NCBI GenBank assembly: GCA_021162425.1
Contig: JAGGYQ010000046.1
Location: 1-38,660, forward strand
DNA from: Candidatus Aenigmatarchaeota archaeon
GTDB lineage: Archaea > Aenigmatarchaeota > Aenigmatarchaeia > QMZP01 > QMZT01
Length of the DNA: 38,660 nt
Reading direction: 5' to 3'
Made by a program: the position numbers and the translations under genes. Under the pieces are notes generated by a model. The model ran no database searches. It was not told the origin of the DNA and saw only the letters and a list, made by a program, of their open reading frames with translations. Positions 2,863-23,102 of this stretch are shown here, piece after piece. Numbering within the stretch: the first letter of the stretch is position 1; every line of letters starts with the position of its first letter.

Positions 2863-2921
2863 ACTTGAGTTTGAATCTGCTTATTTTTCTGCTGAAGCAT
2901 GGGTAAACTTTTTAAATCTTT

Positions 2922-2960
2922 ATGAATATATATTCATATCAGAAATGAATTAATATTCAA
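2922..2960. promoter_or_regulatory. Twin palindromic operator candidate, ATGAAT-N4-ATTCA(T/A), two copies 23 bp apart
   Basis: Site 1 is 2922-2937 (atgaat atat attcat), inside a perfect 18-bp palindrome at 2921-2938. Site 2 is 2945-2960 (atgaat taat attcaa). Both lie just downstream of a TATA-like tttttaaat (2909-2917) and just upstream of the DUF5320 start at 2980. Confidence 0.5.
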
Positions 2961-2979
2961 AACTATGGAGGTGATAAAA

Positions 2980-3327
2980 ATGCCATGGGGAGATGGAACA
3001 GGTCCATGGGGTCTTGGACCAATGACAGGCAGAGCAGCAGGTTACTGTGCAGGCTACAATGTCCCAGGATATGCAAACCCTGTACCAAGAGGCTTTGGCA
3101 GAGGTTTTGGTCGTGGATTCGGAAGGGGCTTTGCCAGAAGAGGATTTTTCGGAAGGGCATGGATTCCCATTCCAGCAAGATGGAATATCCCTTACGCAGT
3201 AGAACCAGCACAAACATTTGAATACCCGAAAGATGCAGAAATAGCAGAGCTTAAGGCGGAAAGAGAAGCTTTGCAAAGAGAACTCAAGGCTATAGAGGAT
3301 AGACTCCGCGAACTCGAAAAGAAATAA
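2980..3327 (+). CDS. DUF5320 family protein (GDGTGP...GRGxGYCAG N-terminus, GRGF repeats, C-terminal coiled coil)
   Basis: MPWGDGTGPWGLGPMTGRAAGYCAGY is the signature N-terminus of DUF5320. It is followed by (GRGF)x4 and a heptad-like AELKAEREALQRELKAIEDRLRELEKK. The ATG at 2980 follows GGAGGTGA (2967-2974); the track start at 2965 is probably too long. Confidence 0.8.
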   Translation: MPWGDGTGPWGLGPMTGRAAGYCAGYNVPGYANPVPRGFGRGFGRGFGRGFARRGFFGRAWIPIPARWNIPYAVEPAQTFEYPKDAEIAELKAEREALQRELKAIEDRLRELEKK

Positions 3328-3351
3328 ATTCAAGCAAATCAATGATTTATC

Positions 3352-3684
3352 ATGCCAAGACCAAGGATACCCCGGAGGGTATGGTTTCAACCAGGATTCA
3401 CTTATTTCAAACCGGTAGGTGTCCCGCTAGCGAATATACTTGAAGTGATCATAACGGTGGATGAGATGGAAGCTATAAGGTTGAAGGATTACGAAGGATT
3501 GGATCAGGTGAAGGCAGCTAAACGCATGGGCATTTCGCAGCCAACATTTCAGAGAATTTACGAATCCGCGCGCAGGAAAATAGCGGATGCCCTTGTGAAC
3601 GGAAAGGCCATAAGAATAGAAGGCGGTCATTACACATTCGTGGGCAGAGGCTTCGGTAGAGGTAGATTTGGAAGGAGATTCTGA
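3352..3684 (+). CDS. DUF134/UPF0251 family predicted DNA-binding protein
   Basis: [26 protein letters not shown]...[57 protein letters not shown] matches the DUF134 pattern, a sigma-70 region-4-like HTH. The C-terminal tail is [13 protein letters not shown]. Confidence 0.85.
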
Positions 3685-3688
3685 TACA

Positions 3689-4108
3689 ATGAAATACAGA
3701 GAAACATTTGTCAAAACAGCCAGAAGTTTCGGTGAGTTCATACCTTTATTAATAGGTGTTTTGCTTCTCGTTTCTCTTTTAATTTCGGCTATGAGGATGA
3801 AGTTGTTCGAGTTAAACATTTTCACAGGGAATGTCTTCATAGATTCATTCATAGGAGCTGTTTTCGGTAGCTTTGCAACAGGCAATCCCATAACGAGTTA
3901 CATAATAGGTGGAGAATTTCTCAGAAATGGCATACCACTTGTTGTGGTCACATCATTCCTTGTTGCATGGGTCACAGTGGGTATGGTTCAACTACCGGCT
4001 GAAAGCATAATGCTGGGAAGACGTTTTGCAATAACGAGAAATCTCGTGAGCTTCCTGCTATCAATAGCTGTTGCTGTAGCCGTGGTTTTGACGTTGGGTT
4101 TGGTATGA
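3689..4108 (+). CDS. Integral membrane protein, first half of a two-gene permease
   Basis: Four predicted TM helices. The ATG at 3689 follows GGAAGGAG; the track start at 3668 is TTG inside the DUF134 gene. The stop overlaps the next start (ATGATG at 4105-4110). Confidence 0.7.
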   Translation: MKYRETFVKTARSFGEFIPLLIGVLLLVSLLISAMRMKLFELNIFTGNVFIDSFIGAVFGSFATGNPITSYIIGGEFLRNGIPLVVVTSFLVAWVTVGMVQLPAESIMLGRRFAITRNLVSFLLSIAVAVAVVLTLGLV

Positions 4109-4620
4109 TGAATGGAAAGAGGAAATCTTCAAGGAAACTGGAATGGGTGTTCATGCTAGTTGTTATTATTCTCTACATACCGTTATACTTTTTGAACAGC
4201 GGATTTATTGAAAATTCCCTAAAAATATTCGTCAACACATTCATCAAAGTGATACCTGTGATAATCGTTGTATTTGCCGTCATGTATATTGTGAATCTTT
4301 TTGCAGATAAGAAAAAAATCATGAAATACGTTGGTGAATCATCGGGTCTCAAAGGATGGATATTTTCAATAATAAGTGGTATCCTGTCAACAGGACCTGT
4401 ATACATGTGGTATCCACTTCTCAGGAATTTGAAGGAAAAGGGAATGAAAGATTCACTTATAGCAACATTTCTCTACAACAGAGCGGTCAAAATACCTCTG
4501 ATACCTATCATGATCTACTATTTCGGTTTTTTATTTACCGTGTTGCTTATGTTTTATATGATAATATTTTCTGTTATCAATGGTTTGATAGTAGGGTTAT
4601 TGAATAAAGGAGGTAGGTAA
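4105..4620 (+). CDS. Integral membrane protein, second half of a two-gene permease
   Basis: 171 aa with 4-5 hydrophobic helices. It is start/stop-coupled to the preceding membrane gene, and the next gene follows after a 1-nt gap. Confidence 0.7.
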   Translation: MMNGKRKSSRKLEWVFMLVVIILYIPLYFLNSGFIENSLKIFVNTFIKVIPVIIVVFAVMYIVNLFADKKKIMKYVGESSGLKGWIFSIISGILSTGPVYMWYPLLRNLKEKGMKDSLIATFLYNRAVKIPLIPIMIYYFGFLFTVLLMFYMIIFSVINGLIVGLLNKGGR

Positions 4621-4621
4621 T

Positions 4622-5047
4622 ATGAGAATAGCTGTTAGCTCGACAGGACCTGATCTGGACAGTCAGGCAAGCCCTGTATTCGGCAGGTGTCCATACTTTG
4701 TGATAGTGGACGTTGAAGGAAATGAGATAAAAGGAGCGAATGGGTTCCCGAATCAGGCAATGAACATGCCTGGAGGCGCAGGCATAGCATCAGCAGAATT
4801 TGTAGCCAACCAGGGTGTTCAGGTTGTTATCTCTGGTTCTGTGGGACCCAGATCTTTCGATGTCCTTTCTCACGCAGGCATAAAAATGTATCAAAGCATC
4901 CCAAAAACTGTGAGAGACAATGTGATGGCATTCATCGAAGGTAAACTCAAGCCTATAACAACACCTGCTGGAATGGGTGCGGGAATGGGACCTGGCAGAG
5001 GACTCGGCGGTGGTTTCGGCAGAGGAAGAGGCGGAGGAGGATGGTAA
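4622..5047 (+). CDS. NifX/NifB-C-terminal-like (dinitrogenase FeMo-cofactor-binding fold) protein with a Gly/Arg-rich tail
   Basis: MRIAVSS....VFGRCPYFVIVDVEG..I......NQAMNMPGGAGIASAEFVANQGVQVVISGSVGPRSFDVLSHAGIKMY fits the NifX-like domain pattern. The tail is GMGAGMGPGRGLGGGFGRGRGGGGW. Confidence 0.8.
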   Translation: MRIAVSSTGPDLDSQASPVFGRCPYFVIVDVEGNEIKGANGFPNQAMNMPGGAGIASAEFVANQGVQVVISGSVGPRSFDVLSHAGIKMYQSIPKTVRDNVMAFIEGKLKPITTPAGMGAGMGPGRGLGGGFGRGRGGGGW

Positions 5048-5071
5048 ATCCATCCTTTTCTGGTGTTAAGA

Positions 5072-5701
5072 ATGGAGAACGATATGGAAAACATAAAGAG
5101 TGAAGTGCTGAACTGTAGGAAGTGTGAACTATGGAAAACCAGGAAGAATCCAGTAGTCGGCGAAGGTTCATTGAAGGCTAGAATAATGTTTATTGGTGAG
5201 GCACCGGGTTTCAACGAAGACCTTCAGGGAAGACCTTTTGTCGGCAAAGCAGGAAAGGTTTTAAATGAGCTGATTGAAAGTATAGGATTGAGAAGGGAGG
5301 ACGTTTACATAACAAATGTTGTGAAATGCCGTCCACCTGAAAACAGAGACCCAACGCCAGAAGAAATAGAAAAATGTTCGCCATACATTAACAGACAAAT
5401 CAAGATTATAAGACCTGAGATAATCTGCACACTCGGGAAGCACTCAACGTCATATATCTTCAAAAAATTCGGTTTACCACACGACAATATAAGCAGAATC
5501 CACGGAAAAATCTACAGGGTAAAAAATCTATTCTATGATTTGCTCGTAATACCGCTTTATCATCCTGCGGTCGCTGTTTACAATGCTGACATGAAATCAG
5601 AACTTGTAGAGGATTTCAAAATTGTAAAGGAGGAATACATGAGATTGGGTGGTCTGGATGAAAATAGCAATACCAACAGACGGGAAAAATGGATTAGATG
5701 A
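5072..5701 (+). CDS. udg: Uracil-DNA glycosylase, family 4 ([4Fe-4S] type)
   Basis: CRKCEL...VVGEG...IMFIGEAPGFNEDLQGRPFVGKAGKVLNE...VVKCRPPENRDP...EKCSPY...LYHPA. These are the family-4 motifs, including the four cluster cysteines. Alternative starts are GTG 5063 and ATG 5084. Confidence 0.9.
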   Translation: MENDMENIKSEVLNCRKCELWKTRKNPVVGEGSLKARIMFIGEAPGFNEDLQGRPFVGKAGKVLNELIESIGLRREDVYITNVVKCRPPENRDPTPEEIEKCSPYINRQIKIIRPEIICTLGKHSTSYIFKKFGLPHDNISRIHGKIYRVKNLFYDLLVIPLYHPAVAVYNADMKSELVEDFKIVKEEYMRLGGLDENSNTNRREKWIR

Positions 5702-6017
5702 AAGAGTTGCATATCACTTCGGTAGATGCGCAACATATACGATACTAGATGAAGAAGGGAATGTCGTTGAAATCATAGATAACACAAGTGAACATTTTGG
5801 CGGCCGTGGAATGCCGGCAGAGTTATTGAAAGAGCGTAATGTTGATGTTTTGTTGTGTAGGGGTATAGGACCAAGAGCTATAGAACTTGCAAATAATCTG
5901 GGAATGGACGTTTACGTTGGAGAGGCTGAAAGTGTAAAGGATATGTTCAAATTATGGAAGTCCGGTAAGCTCAAAAAGGCGACACTGGACGACACGTGTG
6001 GAGATCATAAGGTGTGA
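5658..6017 (+). CDS. NifX/NifB-C-terminal-like cluster-binding protein (second copy)
   Basis: MKIAIPTDGKNGLDERVAYHFGRCATYTILDEEG.VVEIIDN...H.GG.GMPAELLKERNVDVLLCRGIGPRAIELANNLGMDVY. It overlaps the UDG 3' end by 44 nt in another frame. Confidence 0.8.
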   Translation: MKIAIPTDGKNGLDERVAYHFGRCATYTILDEEGNVVEIIDNTSEHFGGRGMPAELLKERNVDVLLCRGIGPRAIELANNLGMDVYVGEAESVKDMFKLWKSGKLKKATLDDTCGDHKV

Positions 6018-6019
6018 CC

Positions 6020-6472
6020 ATGAGACAGAATTTCTGCGAGATTCCAATCGAAAACGCAACGGATGAAGAGGTGAAGGAAATATTGACAAAATATAATGTA
6101 ATTGCAGTTGTCGGTATGTCGAGAAACCCGGAAAAAGATGCGCATAAAGTTCCCAAGTATTTAATGGAGCATGGTTACAAAATAATTCCAGTGAACCCAT
6201 TTGCAGAAGAAATTCTTGGATTAAAGGCATACAAGGACCTAAAAAATATCAAAGAACCCGTGGACATAGTCGATATATTCAGACCACCCGAAGAGGTAAT
6301 GGATATTGTCAAAAAAGCTGTTAAGATAAAGGCAAAGGTTGTGTGGATGCAGAAAGGTATAGTTAAAAATGCTGCGGCTGATTACGCAAGGGAGCATGGT
6401 TTAAAGGTGGTCATGGACAAATGCATGATGGTTGAACATATGAAATTGGTTAAAGAAGGTGTTCTGAAGTGA
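6020..6472 (+). CDS. CoA-binding domain protein (YccU/YneT-like)
   Basis: VIAVVGMSRNPEKDAHKVPKYLMEHGYKIIPVNP...VDIVDIFRPPEEV...KAKVVWMQ.G is the typical small CoA-binding (Rossmann) protein pattern. An alternative GTG start at 6014 overlaps the previous stop. Confidence 0.8.
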   Translation: MRQNFCEIPIENATDEEVKEILTKYNVIAVVGMSRNPEKDAHKVPKYLMEHGYKIIPVNPFAEEILGLKAYKDLKNIKEPVDIVDIFRPPEEVMDIVKKAVKIKAKVVWMQKGIVKNAAADYAREHGLKVVMDKCMMVEHMKLVKEGVLK

Positions 6473-7311
6473 GAATAGCGATAACAGGCGGGAAAGGGGG
6501 AACAGGAAAATCAACTGTTGCAACTGCGTTGGCGAGAGGACTTGCGAAGAAATACAATATCCTTCTCCTAGATGCAGATGCAGATTGTCCGAATGACCAT
6601 ATAATACTAAACGCGGAAAGAAAAAAAGTTAAAGATGTTTTTCAATTCAAACCTATTTTTGATTTCGATAAATGTATAAAGTGTGGTTTGTGTGCAAAAG
6701 TCTGCAAAGAGAAAGCGATAGTTTTTGTGAAAGGAAAGCATCCCATGTTTATAGAAGACCAATGCATTGGATGCAAAGCGTGCATGATTGTGTGTCCGAC
6801 AAAAGCTATATCTGAGGGTGAAAAGAAAATAGGTACGATTTATGAGGGTGAAAATTACGGTGTAAAGCTTGTAACAGGTGAGATGGAGATAGGAATAGAG
6901 GAAGCTTCGCCAACTATTAATGCATTGAAAAAATACGTGGAGAAAGATAAGAACAAATACGATTTTGTCATCGTCGATACGGCGGCAGGGACACACTGTA
7001 GCGTTATATCCGCTTTAATGGGTTGTGATTTAGCTCTGGCTGTTACCGAGCCAACACCACTCGGAAGACATGACGCTGAACTTATATTAAGATTAACCAA
7101 AATACTTGATATACCAACAAAAATCATTCTCAACAAAGCAGATATCGGTGATTATGGACTAATAAAAGACTTGGCAAAGAAATATGAAACCGAAATAATA
7201 GCCAAAATACCTTATAGAAGAGAAATAGCAGAAGCTTACTCGAGAGGTGAACCGATAGAAGATGAAGAAATAAATAAGATAGCTAAATGGTTAATAACAT
7301 GGGGGAAATAA
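6469..7311 (+). CDS. MinD/ParA-superfamily P-loop ATPase with an inserted 2x[4Fe-4S] ferredoxin domain
   Basis: Deviant Walker A GGKGGTGKST. Two cluster motifs: CIKCGLCAKVC and CIGCKACMIVCP. Walker B FVIVDTAAG. The GTG start overlaps the previous TGA. Confidence 0.9.
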   Translation: MRIAITGGKGGTGKSTVATALARGLAKKYNILLLDADADCPNDHIILNAERKKVKDVFQFKPIFDFDKCIKCGLCAKVCKEKAIVFVKGKHPMFIEDQCIGCKACMIVCPTKAISEGEKKIGTIYEGENYGVKLVTGEMEIGIEEASPTINALKKYVEKDKNKYDFVIVDTAAGTHCSVISALMGCDLALAVTEPTPLGRHDAELILRLTKILDIPTKIILNKADIGDYGLIKDLAKKYETEIIAKIPYRREIAEAYSRGEPIEDEEINKIAKWLITWGK

Positions 7312-7766
7312 ACTTCAAGCCAATAGGTTATGTGAAGTCAAGATTCAAAGACCCTGAAGACCTAACGTTCGCATGTGAGAAGGGTTTACTCACGAAGACT
7401 GAAAGCGAAATAGTGATAAATAAAGAATATGCAGAAGGAATGGCAGGTCTTTCTAGTTTTTCGCATATATGGATAATATATCACATAAACGAAGCGAACA
7501 GAACAGAAATGAAAACATATCCAGGACCAACAACTATAAAAGGTTTGCCTGTTGTTGGTGTGTTCGCTTCCAGAAGTCAATATAGACCAAATAAAATAGG
7601 GTTGAGACTGGTTAAATTAGCCGAACTCAAAGGAAATGCTTTGAAAGTCATCGGCCTGGATGCGATAGATAAGACACCTGTTCTGGATGTAAAGCCTTTC
7701 ATACCTCATTTTGATAAACCGAAAAAGGCGAAGGTCGCAGAATGGTATAAAGGATGGTATGTATGA
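7287..7766 (+). CDS. TrmO/TsaA (YaeB, UPF0066) family SAM-dependent methyltransferase-like protein
   Basis: FKPIGYVKSRF....D............I.I..EY.EGM.GL..FSHIWIIYH......TYPG......GVFASRSQYRPN.IGL..V.L......L.V.GLDAID.TPVLDVKPF is the family pattern. It overlaps both flanking ATPase genes. An alternative ATG lies at 7299. Confidence 0.8.
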   Translation: MVNNMGEINFKPIGYVKSRFKDPEDLTFACEKGLLTKTESEIVINKEYAEGMAGLSSFSHIWIIYHINEANRTEMKTYPGPTTIKGLPVVGVFASRSQYRPNKIGLRLVKLAELKGNALKVIGLDAIDKTPVLDVKPFIPHFDKPKKAKVAEWYKGWYV

Positions 7767-8665
7767 AACCAAAGATTATAACCATACTTTCAGGAAAAGG
7801 CGGCGTCGGAAAAAGCAGTATAACCGGTTCTTTAGCAGTGCTTCTATCAAAAGAGAAGAAAATAATAGCAGTAGATTGTGATGTGGATGCATCGAACCTT
7901 GGTTTAGTTTTGGGATTGGAAGAAAACGATTTTGAATCATGGGAACACACAGAAACGTCTGAAAAGGCAAAATTGATAGAAGATAAATGTGTGTCATGCA
8001 GAAAATGTTTGGAAGTTTGCAATTTTTCTGCAATAACATGGAACGACGAGAAGAATTTACCCATATTCAACAAATTCTTATGTGAAGGTTGTGGTGCGTG
8101 TACGCTCGTGTGTCCGACAAAGGCGATAGAGCTTGTAAAGGTCAAGAATGCGAAAATAGGAATTGGTAAAACTCCTTATGGATTCCCAATAATTTCAGGT
8201 CAACTTGAAATGGGCGAATCTGGTTCAGGGAAGGTTGTCACAGAAGTTAAGAATAAAGCTATGAAAATTGCTGAAAGGGAAAAAGCTGAAATAATGCTTG
8301 TTGATTCCGCCGCCGGTATAGGATGTCCTGTTATAGCGAGTGTGAACGGAAGTGATTTTGTTATCGCTGTGACAGAGCCCACGCCGTCGGCTTTGAACGA
8401 TTTGAAAAGAGCTTTGTCTGTTGTTGAGCATTTCAGGATACCTTATGGTTTGATAATAAACAAATACGATATAAATCCAGAATTTACGAAAAAGATTGAA
8501 GAATTTGCAAAGGAAAATGGAATTCCAATATTAGGATTGATACCATACAGCAAAAAATTCGTTGAAGCAGTTATTAACATGAAACCAGTTATTGTCTATG
8601 AAAAGAGATTTGAAAGTATATTTGAAGAAATTAAAGAGAAAATAGTTGAAAACCCCAATATTTAA
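7763..8665 (+). CDS. MinD/ParA-superfamily P-loop ATPase with an inserted 2x[4Fe-4S] ferredoxin domain (second copy)
   Basis: Walker A SGKGGVGKSS. Cluster motifs CVSCRKCLEVC and CEGCGACTLVCP. Walker B MLVDSAAG. The alternative ATG at 7754 overlaps the TrmO-like stop. Confidence 0.9.
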   Translation: MKPKIITILSGKGGVGKSSITGSLAVLLSKEKKIIAVDCDVDASNLGLVLGLEENDFESWEHTETSEKAKLIEDKCVSCRKCLEVCNFSAITWNDEKNLPIFNKFLCEGCGACTLVCPTKAIELVKVKNAKIGIGKTPYGFPIISGQLEMGESGSGKVVTEVKNKAMKIAEREKAEIMLVDSAAGIGCPVIASVNGSDFVIAVTEPTPSALNDLKRALSVVEHFRIPYGLIINKYDINPEFTKKIEEFAKENGIPILGLIPYSKKFVEAVINMKPVIVYEKRFESIFEEIKEKIVENPNI

Positions 8666-21911: not shown

Positions 21912-22070
21912 ATGAAATTTAATAAAAAAGGCTTTGTTACAGGAGCAATTGTTGGTGCAGTAGTAGGGGCTGTCTCAGGGATAACAAATTCAGGGATAGT
22001 GGAAAAAATTTTAATAGCGGTTGTTCTTGGCGCTGTTGTGGCAACAATTATATATTTCATCTGGAAGTAG
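21912..22070 (+). CDS. 52-aa glycine-zipper membrane peptide (below the ORF-track size cutoff)
   Basis: Own translation: MKFNKKGFVTGAIVGAVVGAVSGITNSGIVEKILIAVVLGAVVATIIYFIWK*. It has a GxxxGxxxGxxG zipper plus a second TM helix. The ATG is preceded by aGGGGG (21901-21905). The 93-aa minus-strand ORF here (21896-22177) looks like its antisense shadow (P/T/A-rich). Confidence 0.5.
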   Translation: MKFNKKGFVTGAIVGAVVGAVSGITNSGIVEKILIAVVLGAVVATIIYFIWK

Positions 22071-22133
22071 AAATAGTCGCCAATTCCTAAATTCTGCTTT
22101 GTGAAATAGTCTGGCTTCGAATAATAGTTGTTA

Positions 22134-22174
22134 GCAGAAATTGTCGTATATATTTTATGAAGGGAGACCGCCGC
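22134..22174. repeat. Left arm of a ~40-nt imperfect inverted repeat (partner at 23224-23261)
   Basis: gcagaaattgtcgtatatattttatgaAGGGAGACCGCCGC. The 14-nt core (22161-22174) is the exact reverse complement of 23224-23237. The outer blocks gacaa, tctgc and (at)n are also shared. Confidence 0.6.
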
Positions 22175-22185
22175 CAACCTTATAG

Positions 22186-22923
22186 TTAGTTTTCATCTCC
22201 TCCTTTATAAATAACCAATATAACGGGCAAAAGTGTTAAAATGGAGCAGATTACATGATCCATTTTTCTTTTTAACACCCCTTTAAGATAGTCAGATACC
22301 CTGTCCGAGTCTGTTATAATAAATTCGTCACGAGAAAAACCCGATATGACAATATAGTGGCCATGTGTAAATCCTCTTATATCGCTATATTCATCATCCT
22401 CTGTTGTTCTTTTGATACCAAAAAAAATATTTTCATTCACAGGAGCGATAACAGGTATCCTATTTTTTAAAAAATGCTTAATTAACTCCTTTGTAATGAT
22501 GGAAAAAACAAGTTCTCCACCATTTTCTATAAATAATTTTGCCGTTTTCAATGGATACAAATTCCATTCTGTTATATATTTGTCTTTTCTTTTGATGGAA
22601 GACAAAAATTTTATTCTCCGCTCTATTTTATTTAGGAGTTTTTTGTTGTTGAGATTTATCCACGAGGGATCAAAGATTTCTGTAGATGAAGTTATGACTT
22701 TGGTTTTAAAGCCTCTTTTTAAAGCTGAAAGACCCAGAAGAAATATCCAATCCATGCCCTTGTATATTGTTTTTGTCTCTTCAATTAATTCCTTTATATC
22801 GTATTTTTTTCTTGTAAAGTATTCCATTACTTCAGCTAAACAAGTTGGTGCACATTGCATATATGGCTGTCTGTGTCTAGGAACTTTCAATCTGATTGAC
22901 ATAAAATTAATATGTTTATGCAA
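22186..22923 (-). CDS. Stand-alone papain-fold cysteine peptidase, C39-like
   Basis: RQPYMQCAPTCLAEVMEYF parallels the C39 Q-x(4-5)-C-[GA]-P-x-x-L...Y motif (oxyanion Gln plus catalytic Cys). HGHYIVISGFSRDEFIITDSD parallels the C39 His block H[FY]VV....(D/N)P. No ABC-transporter domain is attached. Confidence 0.55.
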   Translation of the reverse strand: MHKHINFMSIRLKVPRHRQPYMQCAPTCLAEVMEYFTRKKYDIKELIEETKTIYKGMDWIFLLGLSALKRGFKTKVITSSTEIFDPSWINLNNKKLLNKIERRIKFLSSIKRKDKYITEWNLYPLKTAKLFIENGGELVFSIITKELIKHFLKNRIPVIAPVNENIFFGIKRTTEDDEYSDIRGFTHGHYIVISGFSRDEFIITDSDRVSDYLKGVLKRKMDHVICSILTLLPVILVIYKGGDEN

Positions 22924-23102
22924 TTAAAATATTTTAAACACTAACTATAGTAACTATCCACAAAAATTAAACAATATATAAAAAGCCTTGGATGCGAAGT
23001 AAATAATCATTTAGGGAGATTCGGTATAAATTGTTTAGCTTTTGGAGCTAAATTCTTATTCATATTTAAACTCTTCTGGATTACTCAGGTTCATCAAAAG
23101 AA

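Follow-up and report, generated by a model that had tools for sequence, protein, structure and literature searches.

An orp/IssA-type gene cluster with a conserved palindromic operator in an Aenigmatarchaeota genome: a candidate iron-sulfur storage and delivery module

Introduction

Two described systems stand closest to the gene block reported here, which lies in a 38,660-nucleotide contig of Candidatus Aenigmatarchaeota archaeon (JAGGYQ010000046.1; hereafter the window) and encodes two NifX-like proteins of the Nitro_FeMo-Co family, a pair of MinD-type ATPases with ferredoxin motifs (MinD-Fer4), a DUF5320 protein, a DUF134 protein and several smaller partners. The first is the orange protein (ORP) complex of Desulfovibrio vulgaris, isolated by pull-down, whose orp operons encode the MinD-type ATPases Orp3 and Orp4 (two [4Fe-4S] motifs each), Orp5, the Nitro_FeMo-Co 'orange protein' Orp8 and Orp9/MrpORP; the last of these carries iron-sulfur (Fe-S) on both of its domains and passes clusters to Orp3/Orp4 in vitro (PMC6345978). 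The second is IssA (PF2025) of Pyrococcus furiosus, a Nitro_FeMo-Co protein with a cationic Gly/aromatic tail that keeps a store of iron and sulfur in thioferrate form and restores ferredoxin's [4Fe-4S] cluster in vitro (PMC5524996). MTH1175 was assigned to the IssA clade by Vaccaro et al. (PMC5524996), and Methanococcus voltae grown on pyrite contains higher levels of IssA-clade proteins (FeS2; PMC9431491). According to the literature, NifX-like proteins of this kind fall outside the NifX and NafY clades.

From gene content, synteny and comparative sequence analysis, we propose that the block represents, in Aenigmatarchaeota (DPANN), a pan-anaerobe orp/IssA-type cluster that acts as a DUF134-repressed Fe-S storage and delivery module; we put this reading at roughly even odds (about 0.5). 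The original prediction, made from the window alone, had presented the block as an uncharacterised eleven-gene metallocluster-handling system. A metal- or metallocluster-handling role is still the best-supported reading, but 'uncharacterised' does not hold, since the ORP complex (PMC6345978) and IssA (PMC5524996) had already been studied. What is new here is a conserved palindromic operator accompanied by DUF134, a split permease and two small accessories on an orp/IssA-type cluster that lacks both the Mrp carrier and sigma-54 control.

The acquisition, storage and insertion of iron-sulfur clusters in strict anaerobes, above all in the genome-reduced DPANN archaea, are poorly understood. The survey described below ties ORP, IssA, DUF5320 and DUF134 into one conserved system and documents that Fur, IscU and Mrp-like genes, as well as genes for iron/zinc transporters, are repeatedly linked to it. 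The two ATPases can now be assigned to defined paralogous types with a candidate site at their putative interface, and the precise cis-element with its candidate cognate regulator offers a direct experimental entry, with cultivable carriers of the system in Thermovorax subterraneus (DSM 21563; L008), Desulfovibrio and methanogens.

Results and discussion

A conserved core in anaerobes of both domains

A first pass covered the genomic context of three MinD-Fer4 homologues, one in a Pacearchaeota genome, one on an ENA contig and the third on an Aenigmarchaeota contig. In every case DUF5320 and DUF134 are accompanied by Nitro_FeMo-Co genes, one to three in number, and by two neighbouring MinD-type ATPase genes, and each locus includes a transporter, be it a split ArsP_1-like permease, a ZIP or a CDF::NifX fusion; the genes inserted among these vary from locus to locus (among them Lactamase_B, DUF123 and a DNA-alkylation repair gene). 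In the Pacearchaeota locus an EncFtn-like gene lies just downstream of the cluster, and sister DPANN loci carry a CDF fused to Nitro_FeMo-Co, a ZIP and an encapsulated-ferritin-like gene adjoining or near the cluster (L003:2848-4089; L001:10088-11099; L003:7259-7999).

For the main survey, an alignment of 22 DUF5320 proteins led to 80 loci from GTDB species genomes, taken as the best tblastn matches. Open reading frames (ORFs) were called by a simple script, profiles were seeded with proteins of the window, and many of the contigs are incomplete. Frequencies of the window's own families were counted over 48 loci, those in which at least 5 kb of sequence follows DUF5320. Among bacteria the loci range over Atribacterota, Firmicutes, Deltaproteobacteria, Omnitrophota, Planctomycetota, Spirochaetota, Chloroflexota, Bacteroidales and Lentisphaeria, and among archaea over Asgard archaea, Thermoplasmata, Methanosarcinales and DPANN. 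NifX-like genes are present in 39/48 loci (two or more in 32) and MinD-Fer4 genes in 35 (as a pair in 29), and 25 carry an Mrp-like ATPase without the ferredoxin insert. DUF134 follows with 14, CoA_binding_2 with 6, TrmO_N with 5 and the split permease with 3, and neither uracil-DNA glycosylase (UDG) nor the aminotransferase found downstream of the block occurs in any of the 48. The conserved core is thus DUF5320, NifX-like genes (usually two) and a MinD-Fer4 pair in fixed order. That the block goes beyond chance follows from the synteny of these core families across phyla and not from its packing, the window being gene-dense throughout and tight packing uninformative by itself. The expectation that this combination of families recurs in anaerobe genomes is hereby borne out.

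Linked families were extracted by de novo clustering of all neighbour ORFs, with Pfam searches on representatives, and are counted over all 80 loci. In 25 of them, mostly bacterial (e.g. L072:7266-7739), the gene that immediately precedes DUF5320, in the same orientation, encodes a Fur-family protein; elsewhere this regulator slot is occupied by a sigma-54 activator (8, in bacterial loci only), PadR (8) or DUF134. Other recurrent neighbours are radical-SAM (S-adenosylmethionine) genes (15), metallo-beta-lactamase-fold genes (15), ARMT1-like genes (14), FmdB zinc ribbons (10), SAM-methyltransferases (10), NifU_N/IscU (6), the 'heavy-metal chelation' family DUF364 (6) and pyridine-nucleotide disulfide oxidoreductases (6). 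Because Fur, IscU, ZIP, CDF and encapsulated-ferritin-like genes are all linked to the cluster, we favor iron or Fe-S over molybdenum, tungsten or nickel cofactors as its probable cargo. Small Fer4-matching ORFs of any size occur in 22/80 loci, and in five bacterial ones (L028, L072, L073, L076 and L083) a stand-alone ferredoxin-like ORF of about 57-58 residues lies between the NifX-like and MinD-Fer4 genes.

The likeness to the ORP complex lies in the two paralogous MinD-type ATPases with two [4Fe-4S] motifs each (Orp3/Orp4), in the single-domain Nitro_FeMo-Co proteins homologous to the orange protein, and in the restriction to anaerobes. In the deltaproteobacterial loci of our survey (L017 and L081), DUF5320 and NifX are found together with the MinD-Fer4 pair, and an Mrp-like gene and a sigma-54 activator are present as well. 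As a guess, Orp7 (DVU2107) could be a DUF5320 protein. The window operon differs in having neither an Mrp/NBP35-type carrier (Orp9) nor sigma-54/OrpR control, and in possessing instead DUF134 with its operator, the split permease, CoA_binding_2 and a TrmO_N-only gene, all in one archaeal operon as opposed to the two divergent operons of Desulfovibrio. With IssA the cluster shares a Nitro_FeMo-Co/IPR003731 domain and a setting in sulfide-rich anaerobic environments; the Gly/Arg-rich tail that follows this domain in NifX1 is similar in chemistry to the cationic IssA tail but shorter and poor in aromatics. It differs from IssA, which has been described without MinD-Fer4 partners, in that the repeat chemistry is spread over three proteins.

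A palindromic operator and its candidate regulator

The perfect palindrome ATGAATATATATTCAT lies 57 nucleotides upstream of the DUF5320 start in the window, and a degenerate second copy follows it at 23 nucleotides centre to centre, both sites overlapping the AT-rich core-promoter region (Table 1). Its core, TGAATATATATTCA (with at most 1 mismatch), occurs in 14 copies against 0.83 expected in the 1.23 Mb made up of the window and 86 loci. Outside the window there are 13 copies, every one 21-103 nucleotides upstream of either DUF5320 (12) or NifX (1), and these are confined to archaeal loci, namely those of Pace-, Woese- and Aenigmarchaeota and of two Asgard genomes. Loci with the palindrome include L001, L003, L005, L009, L010, L012, L018 and L043, of which L001, L003, L005, L010, L012 and L043 also have a second, weaker site at a comparable distance.

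We also scanned metagenomes for the exact 18-mer TATGAATATATATTCATA, a search blind to genes, and retrieved 121 sites in 120 stretches (loci L087-L206). Almost half of the sites (55/121) lie within 200 nucleotides upstream of DUF134 (26), DUF5320 (25), NifX (5) or MinD (1) genes. An ORP-type gene is present in 71 of the stretches, 32 of which are at least 4 kb long, and these 32 encode DUF134 in 28 cases and an ArsR-like protein in one. ORP-type genes are absent from the other 49 loci, and in 20 of these an ArsR-like regulator is encoded beside P1B-ATPase or CDF efflux genes. One palindrome thus serves two disjoint contexts, with regulator linkage almost mutually exclusive between DUF134 and ArsR-like proteins. 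The same 18-mer upstream of ArsR-P1B-ATPase and ArsR-CDF efflux operons is the point of likeness to ArsR/SmtB operators, and the difference is that the ORP-type loci are linked to DUF134, which is an unrelated helix-turn-helix (HTH) family; the two HTH families may have arrived at one operator by convergence.

Because DUF134 accompanies the motif in nearly all of the longer ORP-type loci and 26 of the sites lie directly upstream of DUF134 genes, we infer that DUF134 is the candidate repressor acting at 2922-2960, apparently under autoregulation. The alternative candidate binder of these sites remains the product of an ArsR/HTH_20-type gene at 710-1123, located 1.8 kb upstream of the operon with a thermosome gene in between; no copy of the palindrome was found upstream of this gene. 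An ArsR/SmtB sensor as the binder was considered and downgraded, given the single ArsR-like protein among the 32 longer ORP-type motif loci against 28 with DUF134.

The window DUF134 is a 110-residue protein with a sigma-70 region-4-like HTH and no Cys. In most DPANN cluster-linked DUF134 proteins (L001, L003, L005, L009, L012 and L079) a C-terminal four-Cys ribbon of the form CxCPxCG...CxKCG is present, which the window protein and that of L010 lack, and the sensory part of the regulator thus seems to differ between lineages. Searches of solved structures returned no relatives of DUF134, and in the searchable literature neither a description of the operator element nor anything relevant on COG1342/UPF0251 was found. 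In three of the metagenomic stretches (L175:6703-8344, L180 and L189) the 18-mer lies between a DsrE/DsrF-like sulfur-relay gene and an 80-residue ORF, followed by a 250-residue ferredoxin-domain protein; these genes may be further members of the same regulon.

The MinD-ferredoxin ATPase pair

The inserted domain of each of the two ATPases holds two CxxCxxCxxxC motifs, as had been predicted, and it is located between switch I and Walker B. Conservation of the eight ferredoxin Cys is complete or almost so (95-100%) in each ATPase type, and nine invariant Cys are counted per type, including one that lies seven residues after the Walker B Asp. This last residue is Cys177 of MinD1, in DTAAGTHC, and Cys188 of MinD2, in DSAAGIGC; MinD1 also has the deviant Walker A motif GKGGTGKS, and MinD2 a conserved Cys39 in DCDVDA. 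MinD1 and MinD2 belong to two old paralogous lineages. Type 1 precedes type 2 in 38 of 40 pairs, in Bacteria and Archaea alike, and because this order is fixed the two proteins probably function as an obligate MinD1/MinD2 heterodimer.

The AlphaFold2 (AF2) model of MinD1 (predicted local distance difference test, pLDDT, 91.7) has a SIMIBI fold, and its Foldseek matches include MinD, FleN, HypB, ApbC, Cfd1 and NifH-class NTPases, with MinD, HypB and ApbC nearer than NifH. No solved structure with a ferredoxin insert was found in PDB and fold searches, and the literature on COG1149 and on an 'inserted ferredoxin domain' yielded HdrA/Fsr papers only. Compared with NifH and its partners NifX, NafY and NifB, the pair would likewise constitute a SIMIBI P-loop ATPase dimer with Fe-S, here a putative heterodimer, alongside small NifX-fold carriers. 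Asp125 and Cys132 of NifH have the same seven-residue spacing as the Walker B Asp and switch-II Cys of our ATPases. The differences are that no nif genes are linked, that the Fe-S clusters would reside in an inserted ferredoxin domain as against one bridging cluster, and that the fold is nearer MinD; a profile alignment of the ATPases with NifH is confident from the P-loop to switch I only. With Mrp/NBP35/ApbC and CooC/HypB the pair has in common the deviant Walker A, membership in the MinD/Mrp superfamily and a possible dimer-interface Cys for the hand-over of clusters or metal, but the window ATPases lack the CxxC Mrp signature and carry a full 2x[4Fe-4S] ferredoxin insert.

NifX-like proteins, DUF5320 and Gly/Arg repeats

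Both NifX-like proteins are single-domain in Pfam, with no radical-SAM NifB domain. In PDB searches the closest solved relative of NifX1 is MTH1175 (1EO1; 8.3e-28), D. gigas ORP (2WFB) also matches it at 2e-16, and NifX2 matches PH0822 (2YX6) at 5.8e-14. NifX2 displays the motif HFGRC near its N-terminus and CGDH near its C-terminus, a pair that resembles CxHFGHCE and CDH of the MrpORP Di-Nase domain, where these motifs were proposed as ligands of a [3Fe-4S] cluster (PMC6345978). The C-terminal tail of NifX1 comprises 30 residues, among them 15 Gly, 3 Arg, 1 Phe and 1 Trp, the Trp being last, and 24 of 124 cluster-linked NifX-like proteins possess at least 12 Gly, Arg or Lys among their last 30 residues.

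Gly-Arg repeats of the GRG/RGF type occur in three proteins of the operon, at the C-terminus of DUF134 (3649-3684), in the middle of DUF5320 (3088-3150) and in the NifX1 tail (4952-5044), which in PDB searches cross-matches the GR tail of Sm D1. In the alignment, DUF5320 begins with a conserved MPxGDGTGPxGxGPMTGRxxGYC that includes one invariant Cys, continues with (GRGF)n repeats and closes with a C-terminal helix. Its AF2 model is ordered only in helix 84-114 (mean pLDDT 58), a low confidence compatible with intrinsic disorder. Judging by composition, these three proteins appear to share the chemistry of the IssA tail, and for the repeats a shared anionic ligand, RNA binding or condensate formation is conceivable.

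Split permease, accessory genes and a passenger

The permB product aligns with positions 4-130 of the 294-position ArsP_1 profile, that is with its N-terminal half. For permA a Pfam search returned no match, but the two are paralogous, with profile cross-hits of about 1e-20, and in place of a single polypeptide of about 300 residues spanning the ArsP_1 profile the operon thus encodes two paralogous halves. The same adjacent pair is found in L005, L009, L012, L079, L082 and L059, which are DPANN-type loci and one Clostridia contig, and elsewhere the slot is taken by ZIP or CDF transporters. Import by the permease, as first envisaged, was an assumption of the original prediction.

Two further small genes belong to the cluster in some lineages. 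The CoA_binding_2 protein matches PH1109 (2D59) at 5e-37 in a PDB search, and homologues of about 127 residues adjoin or separate the MinD-Fer4 genes in L038, L042, L072, L073, L076 and L078. The TrmO_N protein (155-159 residues) scores 122.6 bits against the TIGR00104 cut-off of 93.25; TrmO_N is the only domain that Pfam detects in it, with no C-terminal TrmO domain found, whereas full-length TrmO, a tRNA m6t6A methyltransferase, has about 235-247 residues. Its best solved match is the single-domain AF_0241 (147 residues), the bacterial 7BTU and 1XQB chains having 237 and 247 residues. Short TrmO_N-only homologues are present in 7/80 loci, and in the window the gene separates the two ATPase genes. 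Both families occur at about ten times the rough expectation (<1%) for an unrelated single-copy neighbour, and they are recurrent, lineage-specific accessories. Their treatment as random passengers was dropped in view of their presence in 6-7/80 loci at conserved positions.

UDG is different. The protein is an equivalog-level match to family 4 with a CxxC...C...C four-Cys pattern, and family 4 is a [4Fe-4S] family. Because none of the 80 related loci carries such a gene, UDG is an embedded passenger outside the conserved system, which, contrary to what was first supposed, does not comprise all eleven genes. The embedded passengers of two Aenigmarchaeota-type operons are both DNA-repair genes, UDG here and DUF123 plus DNA-alkylation repair in L005:7049-8004, which may reflect either coincidence or co-expression with Fe-S clients.

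Proposed mechanism and alternatives

In the mechanism that we envisage, a DUF134 dimer would sit on both palindromes and block the core promoter until a metal or Fe-S signal arrives, repressing its own gene in the process. The split permease would move a metal, as an ion or in a complex, through the membrane, in one direction or the other, from the slot used by ZIP and CDF in sister loci. The NifX-like proteins would bind labile, non-cysteinyl Fe-S in the manner of IssA, Orp8 and the MrpORP Di-Nase domain, and an anionic Fe-S polymer or clusters may be held electrostatically by the NifX1 Gly/Arg tail and by the (GRGF)n repeats of DUF5320. The MinD-ferredoxin heterodimer, with four predicted [4Fe-4S] clusters and a possible interface site formed from the switch-II Cys, would use ATP binding and hydrolysis to gate the transfer of electrons and/or clusters between the carriers and apo-clients, as do NifH, Nbp35/ApbC and CooC. 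CoA_binding_2 and the TrmO_N-only protein could be accessory subunits; although speculative, a CoA thiol that helps to mobilise Fe-S is one possibility. UDG is a passenger without a part in the scheme.

A bolder form of this proposal, tentative and in our view somewhat unlikely, is that the cluster represents an ancient anaerobe route of Fe-S storage and assembly from inorganic iron and sulfide and not from SUF/ISC scaffolds. DUF5320, with its RG repeats and a coiled coil, and the tailed NifX would hold a thioferrate-like polymer, the NifH-like MinD-ferredoxin heterodimer would use ATP to mobilise it reductively into client [4Fe-4S] clusters, and DUF134 would be a new family of archaeal repressors responsive to metal or Fe-S, with convergence on an operator like that of ArsR/SmtB. 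If true, this route could be a main Fe-S supply line in genome-reduced DPANN archaea.

Several observations weigh against an Fe-S storage and delivery module under DUF134 control. RG-rich repeats are equally a classic motif of RNA binding or of condensates. Only a weak alignment (probability 28%), made with a manually entered NifH sequence, places the invariant ATPase Cys on Cys132 of NifH. The identical palindrome serves ArsR-linked efflux operons and the window itself has an ArsR-like gene, so that DUF134 is a candidate binder and not the sole one. The Mrp-type carrier of about half of the related loci is absent from the window operon, and the NifX1 tail, at 30 residues with 2 aromatics, is short against that of IssA (70 residues, 14 aromatics). 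Moreover, Pyrococcus without IssA still forms thioferrate-like particles (PMC8219758), and the role of IssA as a store may thus not be essential. Finally, Orp8/ORP has been purified with a Mo-Cu sulfide cluster and not Fe-S (PMC6345978), and the authors of the work on the ORP complex proposed a role in cell division (PMC6345978; PMC3897727).

Among the alternatives, an ATP-dependent low-potential reductase, that is a NifH- or archerase-like activator of an unlinked enzyme or cofactor pathway with NifX-like proteins carrying a cofactor other than simple Fe-S, has the design of NifH, BchL and CfbC on its side (a P-loop dimer plus Fe-S clusters), as well as the invariant switch-II Cys of each ATPase type and the radical-SAM, SAM-methyltransferase and TrmO_N genes that recur nearby and hint at cofactor chemistry. 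Yet no conserved candidate client enzyme is linked to the cluster in the 80 loci, the linkage to Fur and IscU favors iron or Fe-S, and the ATPase fold is nearer MinD, HypB and ApbC than NifH, which together leave this explanation unlikely.

We consider it quite improbable that the cluster handles or detoxifies thiometallates or heterometals (Mo/W-Cu-S), with NifX-like carriers and with ATPases and permease devoted to molybdate, tungstate or copper homeostasis. NifX1 is a homologue of D. gigas ORP, in relatives of which an S2MoS2CuS2MoS2 cluster is bound non-covalently (PMC6345978); during nitrogenase maturation, precursors of FeMo-co are bound by the NifX fold (PMC5524996); and the operator sequence is common to ArsR-controlled heavy-metal efflux operons. 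However, the 34 most recurrent neighbour families of the 80 loci include no Mo/W transporter or molybdopterin gene while Fur, IscU, ZIP, CDF and Mrp-like genes are present, and the window encodes no Mo/W enzyme.

A cell-division or positioning system, in which MinD-like ATPases would set the site of the septum or of other structures, as was initially suggested for the ORP complex, is very improbable. The ATPases are members of the MinD/ParA family, inactivation of orpR leads to defects of cell morphology, and in D. vulgaris MrpORP has a polar location (PMC6345978; PMC3897727). Against this, scores fall far below the MinD equivalog cut-offs (TIGR01969, 61.9 bits versus 201.75; TIGR01968, 58.9 versus 212.9), no MinC or MinE gene was found in the window, a division role leaves the ferredoxin inserts, the NifX-like partners and the linkage to Fur, IscU and transporters unexplained, and the morphological defect could be secondary. 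The reductase, Mo/W-Cu and division explanations each fit the neighbour families less well than does an Fe-S module.

That the genes form no functional unit and are adjacent only through the compact packing of a small DPANN genome is barely credible: the whole window is dense, with the unrelated UDG and aminotransferase genes on the same strand, but synteny of the core in Bacteria and Archaea, fixed paralogue order and a conserved operator refute the idea for the core and leave it true of UDG.

Gene layout and surroundings of the block

The block consists of eleven ORFs, all on the + strand, which overlap or sit at most 36 nucleotides apart (Table 1), with starts chosen by Shine-Dalgarno-like sequences and family N-termini. 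The picture drawn by the original prediction was largely accurate: the single tight block of eleven same-strand ORFs was recovered in full, the junction coordinates were correct apart from the UDG start, and gaps of 25 nucleotides or less hold for the junctions generally, the NifX1/UDG gap being the one that is wider. For UDG, 5084 is the most likely start, as the match to the NCBIfam model of archaeal UDGs sets in at residue 8 of the ORF from 5063. The family calls of the original prediction were confirmed by Pfam and NCBIfam profile searches, with the exception of permA, which is recognised through permB. The absence of nitrogenase, hydrogenase and carbon monoxide dehydrogenase (CODH) genes was likewise confirmed over the rest of the window, and neither nif genes nor an Mrp-like gene were found in the window.

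Table 1. Genes and operator sites of the block, with positions in the window, supporting matches and spacing to the following gene (nt, nucleotides)
Feature	Position	Strand	Evidence	Junction with next gene
Operator site 1	2922-2937	.	Perfect 16-nt palindrome ATGAATATATATTCAT	
Operator site 2	2945-2960	.	Degenerate copy ATGAATTAATATTCAA, 3 mismatches	
DUF5320	2980-3327	+	Pfam 1.6e-31	24-nt gap
DUF134	3352-3684	+	Pfam 3.7e-30; weak Sigma70_r4 matches	4-nt gap
permA, half-size permease	3689-4108	+	About 4 hydrophobic segments; paralogue of permB	ATGA overlap
permB, half-size permease	4105-4620	+	Pfam ArsP_1 1.7e-9	1-nt gap
NifX1 (MTH1175/ORP/IssA-like)	4622-5047	+	Pfam Nitro_FeMo-Co PF02579 3.6e-21	36-nt gap (15 nt with UDG start at 5063)
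Family-4 UDG	5084-5701 (longest ORF from 5063)	+	NCBIfam Arch_udg NF040953, 273.9 bits vs cut-off 250	44-nt overlap
NifX2 (PH0822 type)	5658-6017	+	Pfam Nitro_FeMo-Co 9.1e-19	2-nt gap, or GTGA overlap
CoA_binding_2	6020-6472 (or from 6014)	+	Pfam 3.2e-44	GTGA overlap
MinD-Fer4 #1 (MinD1, type 1, Orp3/Orp4-like)	6469-7311	+	Pfam CbiA/ParA and two Fer4 motifs	Overlap of 13-25 nt
TrmO_N-only (TsaA-like)	7299-7766 (or from 7287)	+	Pfam TrmO_N 4e-32; TIGR00104	ATGA overlap
MinD-Fer4 #2 (MinD2, type 2)	7763-8665 (or from 7754)	+	Pfam CbiA/ParA and two Fer4 motifs	

No terminator-like sites were found on the + strand within 2980-8665 by a scan that is not tuned for archaea, and a sigma-70 promoter scan of the window gave results below shuffle expectation, the sigma-70 model not being meaningful for an archaeon. 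Scans of the window for Rfam families and tRNAs returned none. The aminotransferase gene follows the block on the same strand at a distance of 48 nucleotides, and the remaining genes of the window are archaeal housekeeping genes (GatDE, IMPDH, SHMT, Rad50, HerA, helicases and glycosyltransferases). The best named relatives of the thermosome gene (1169-2833; 73-77% identity) are almost all from Candidatus Aenigmarchaeota/Aenigmatarchaeota, and the closest named relatives of the MinD-Fer4 proteins are from DPANN archaea; an exact-sequence look-up of MinD1 gave no identical record.

Two minor observations concern other regions. In the Aenigmarchaeota contig of our survey, L005:1-1664 holds an SRP54 gene with an intein that includes a LAGLIDADG endonuclease domain. 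In the window, G+C falls to 0.316 within 22001-23000, as against about 0.40 elsewhere, in a segment of small ORFs and a Peptidase_C39-like gene (22186-22923).

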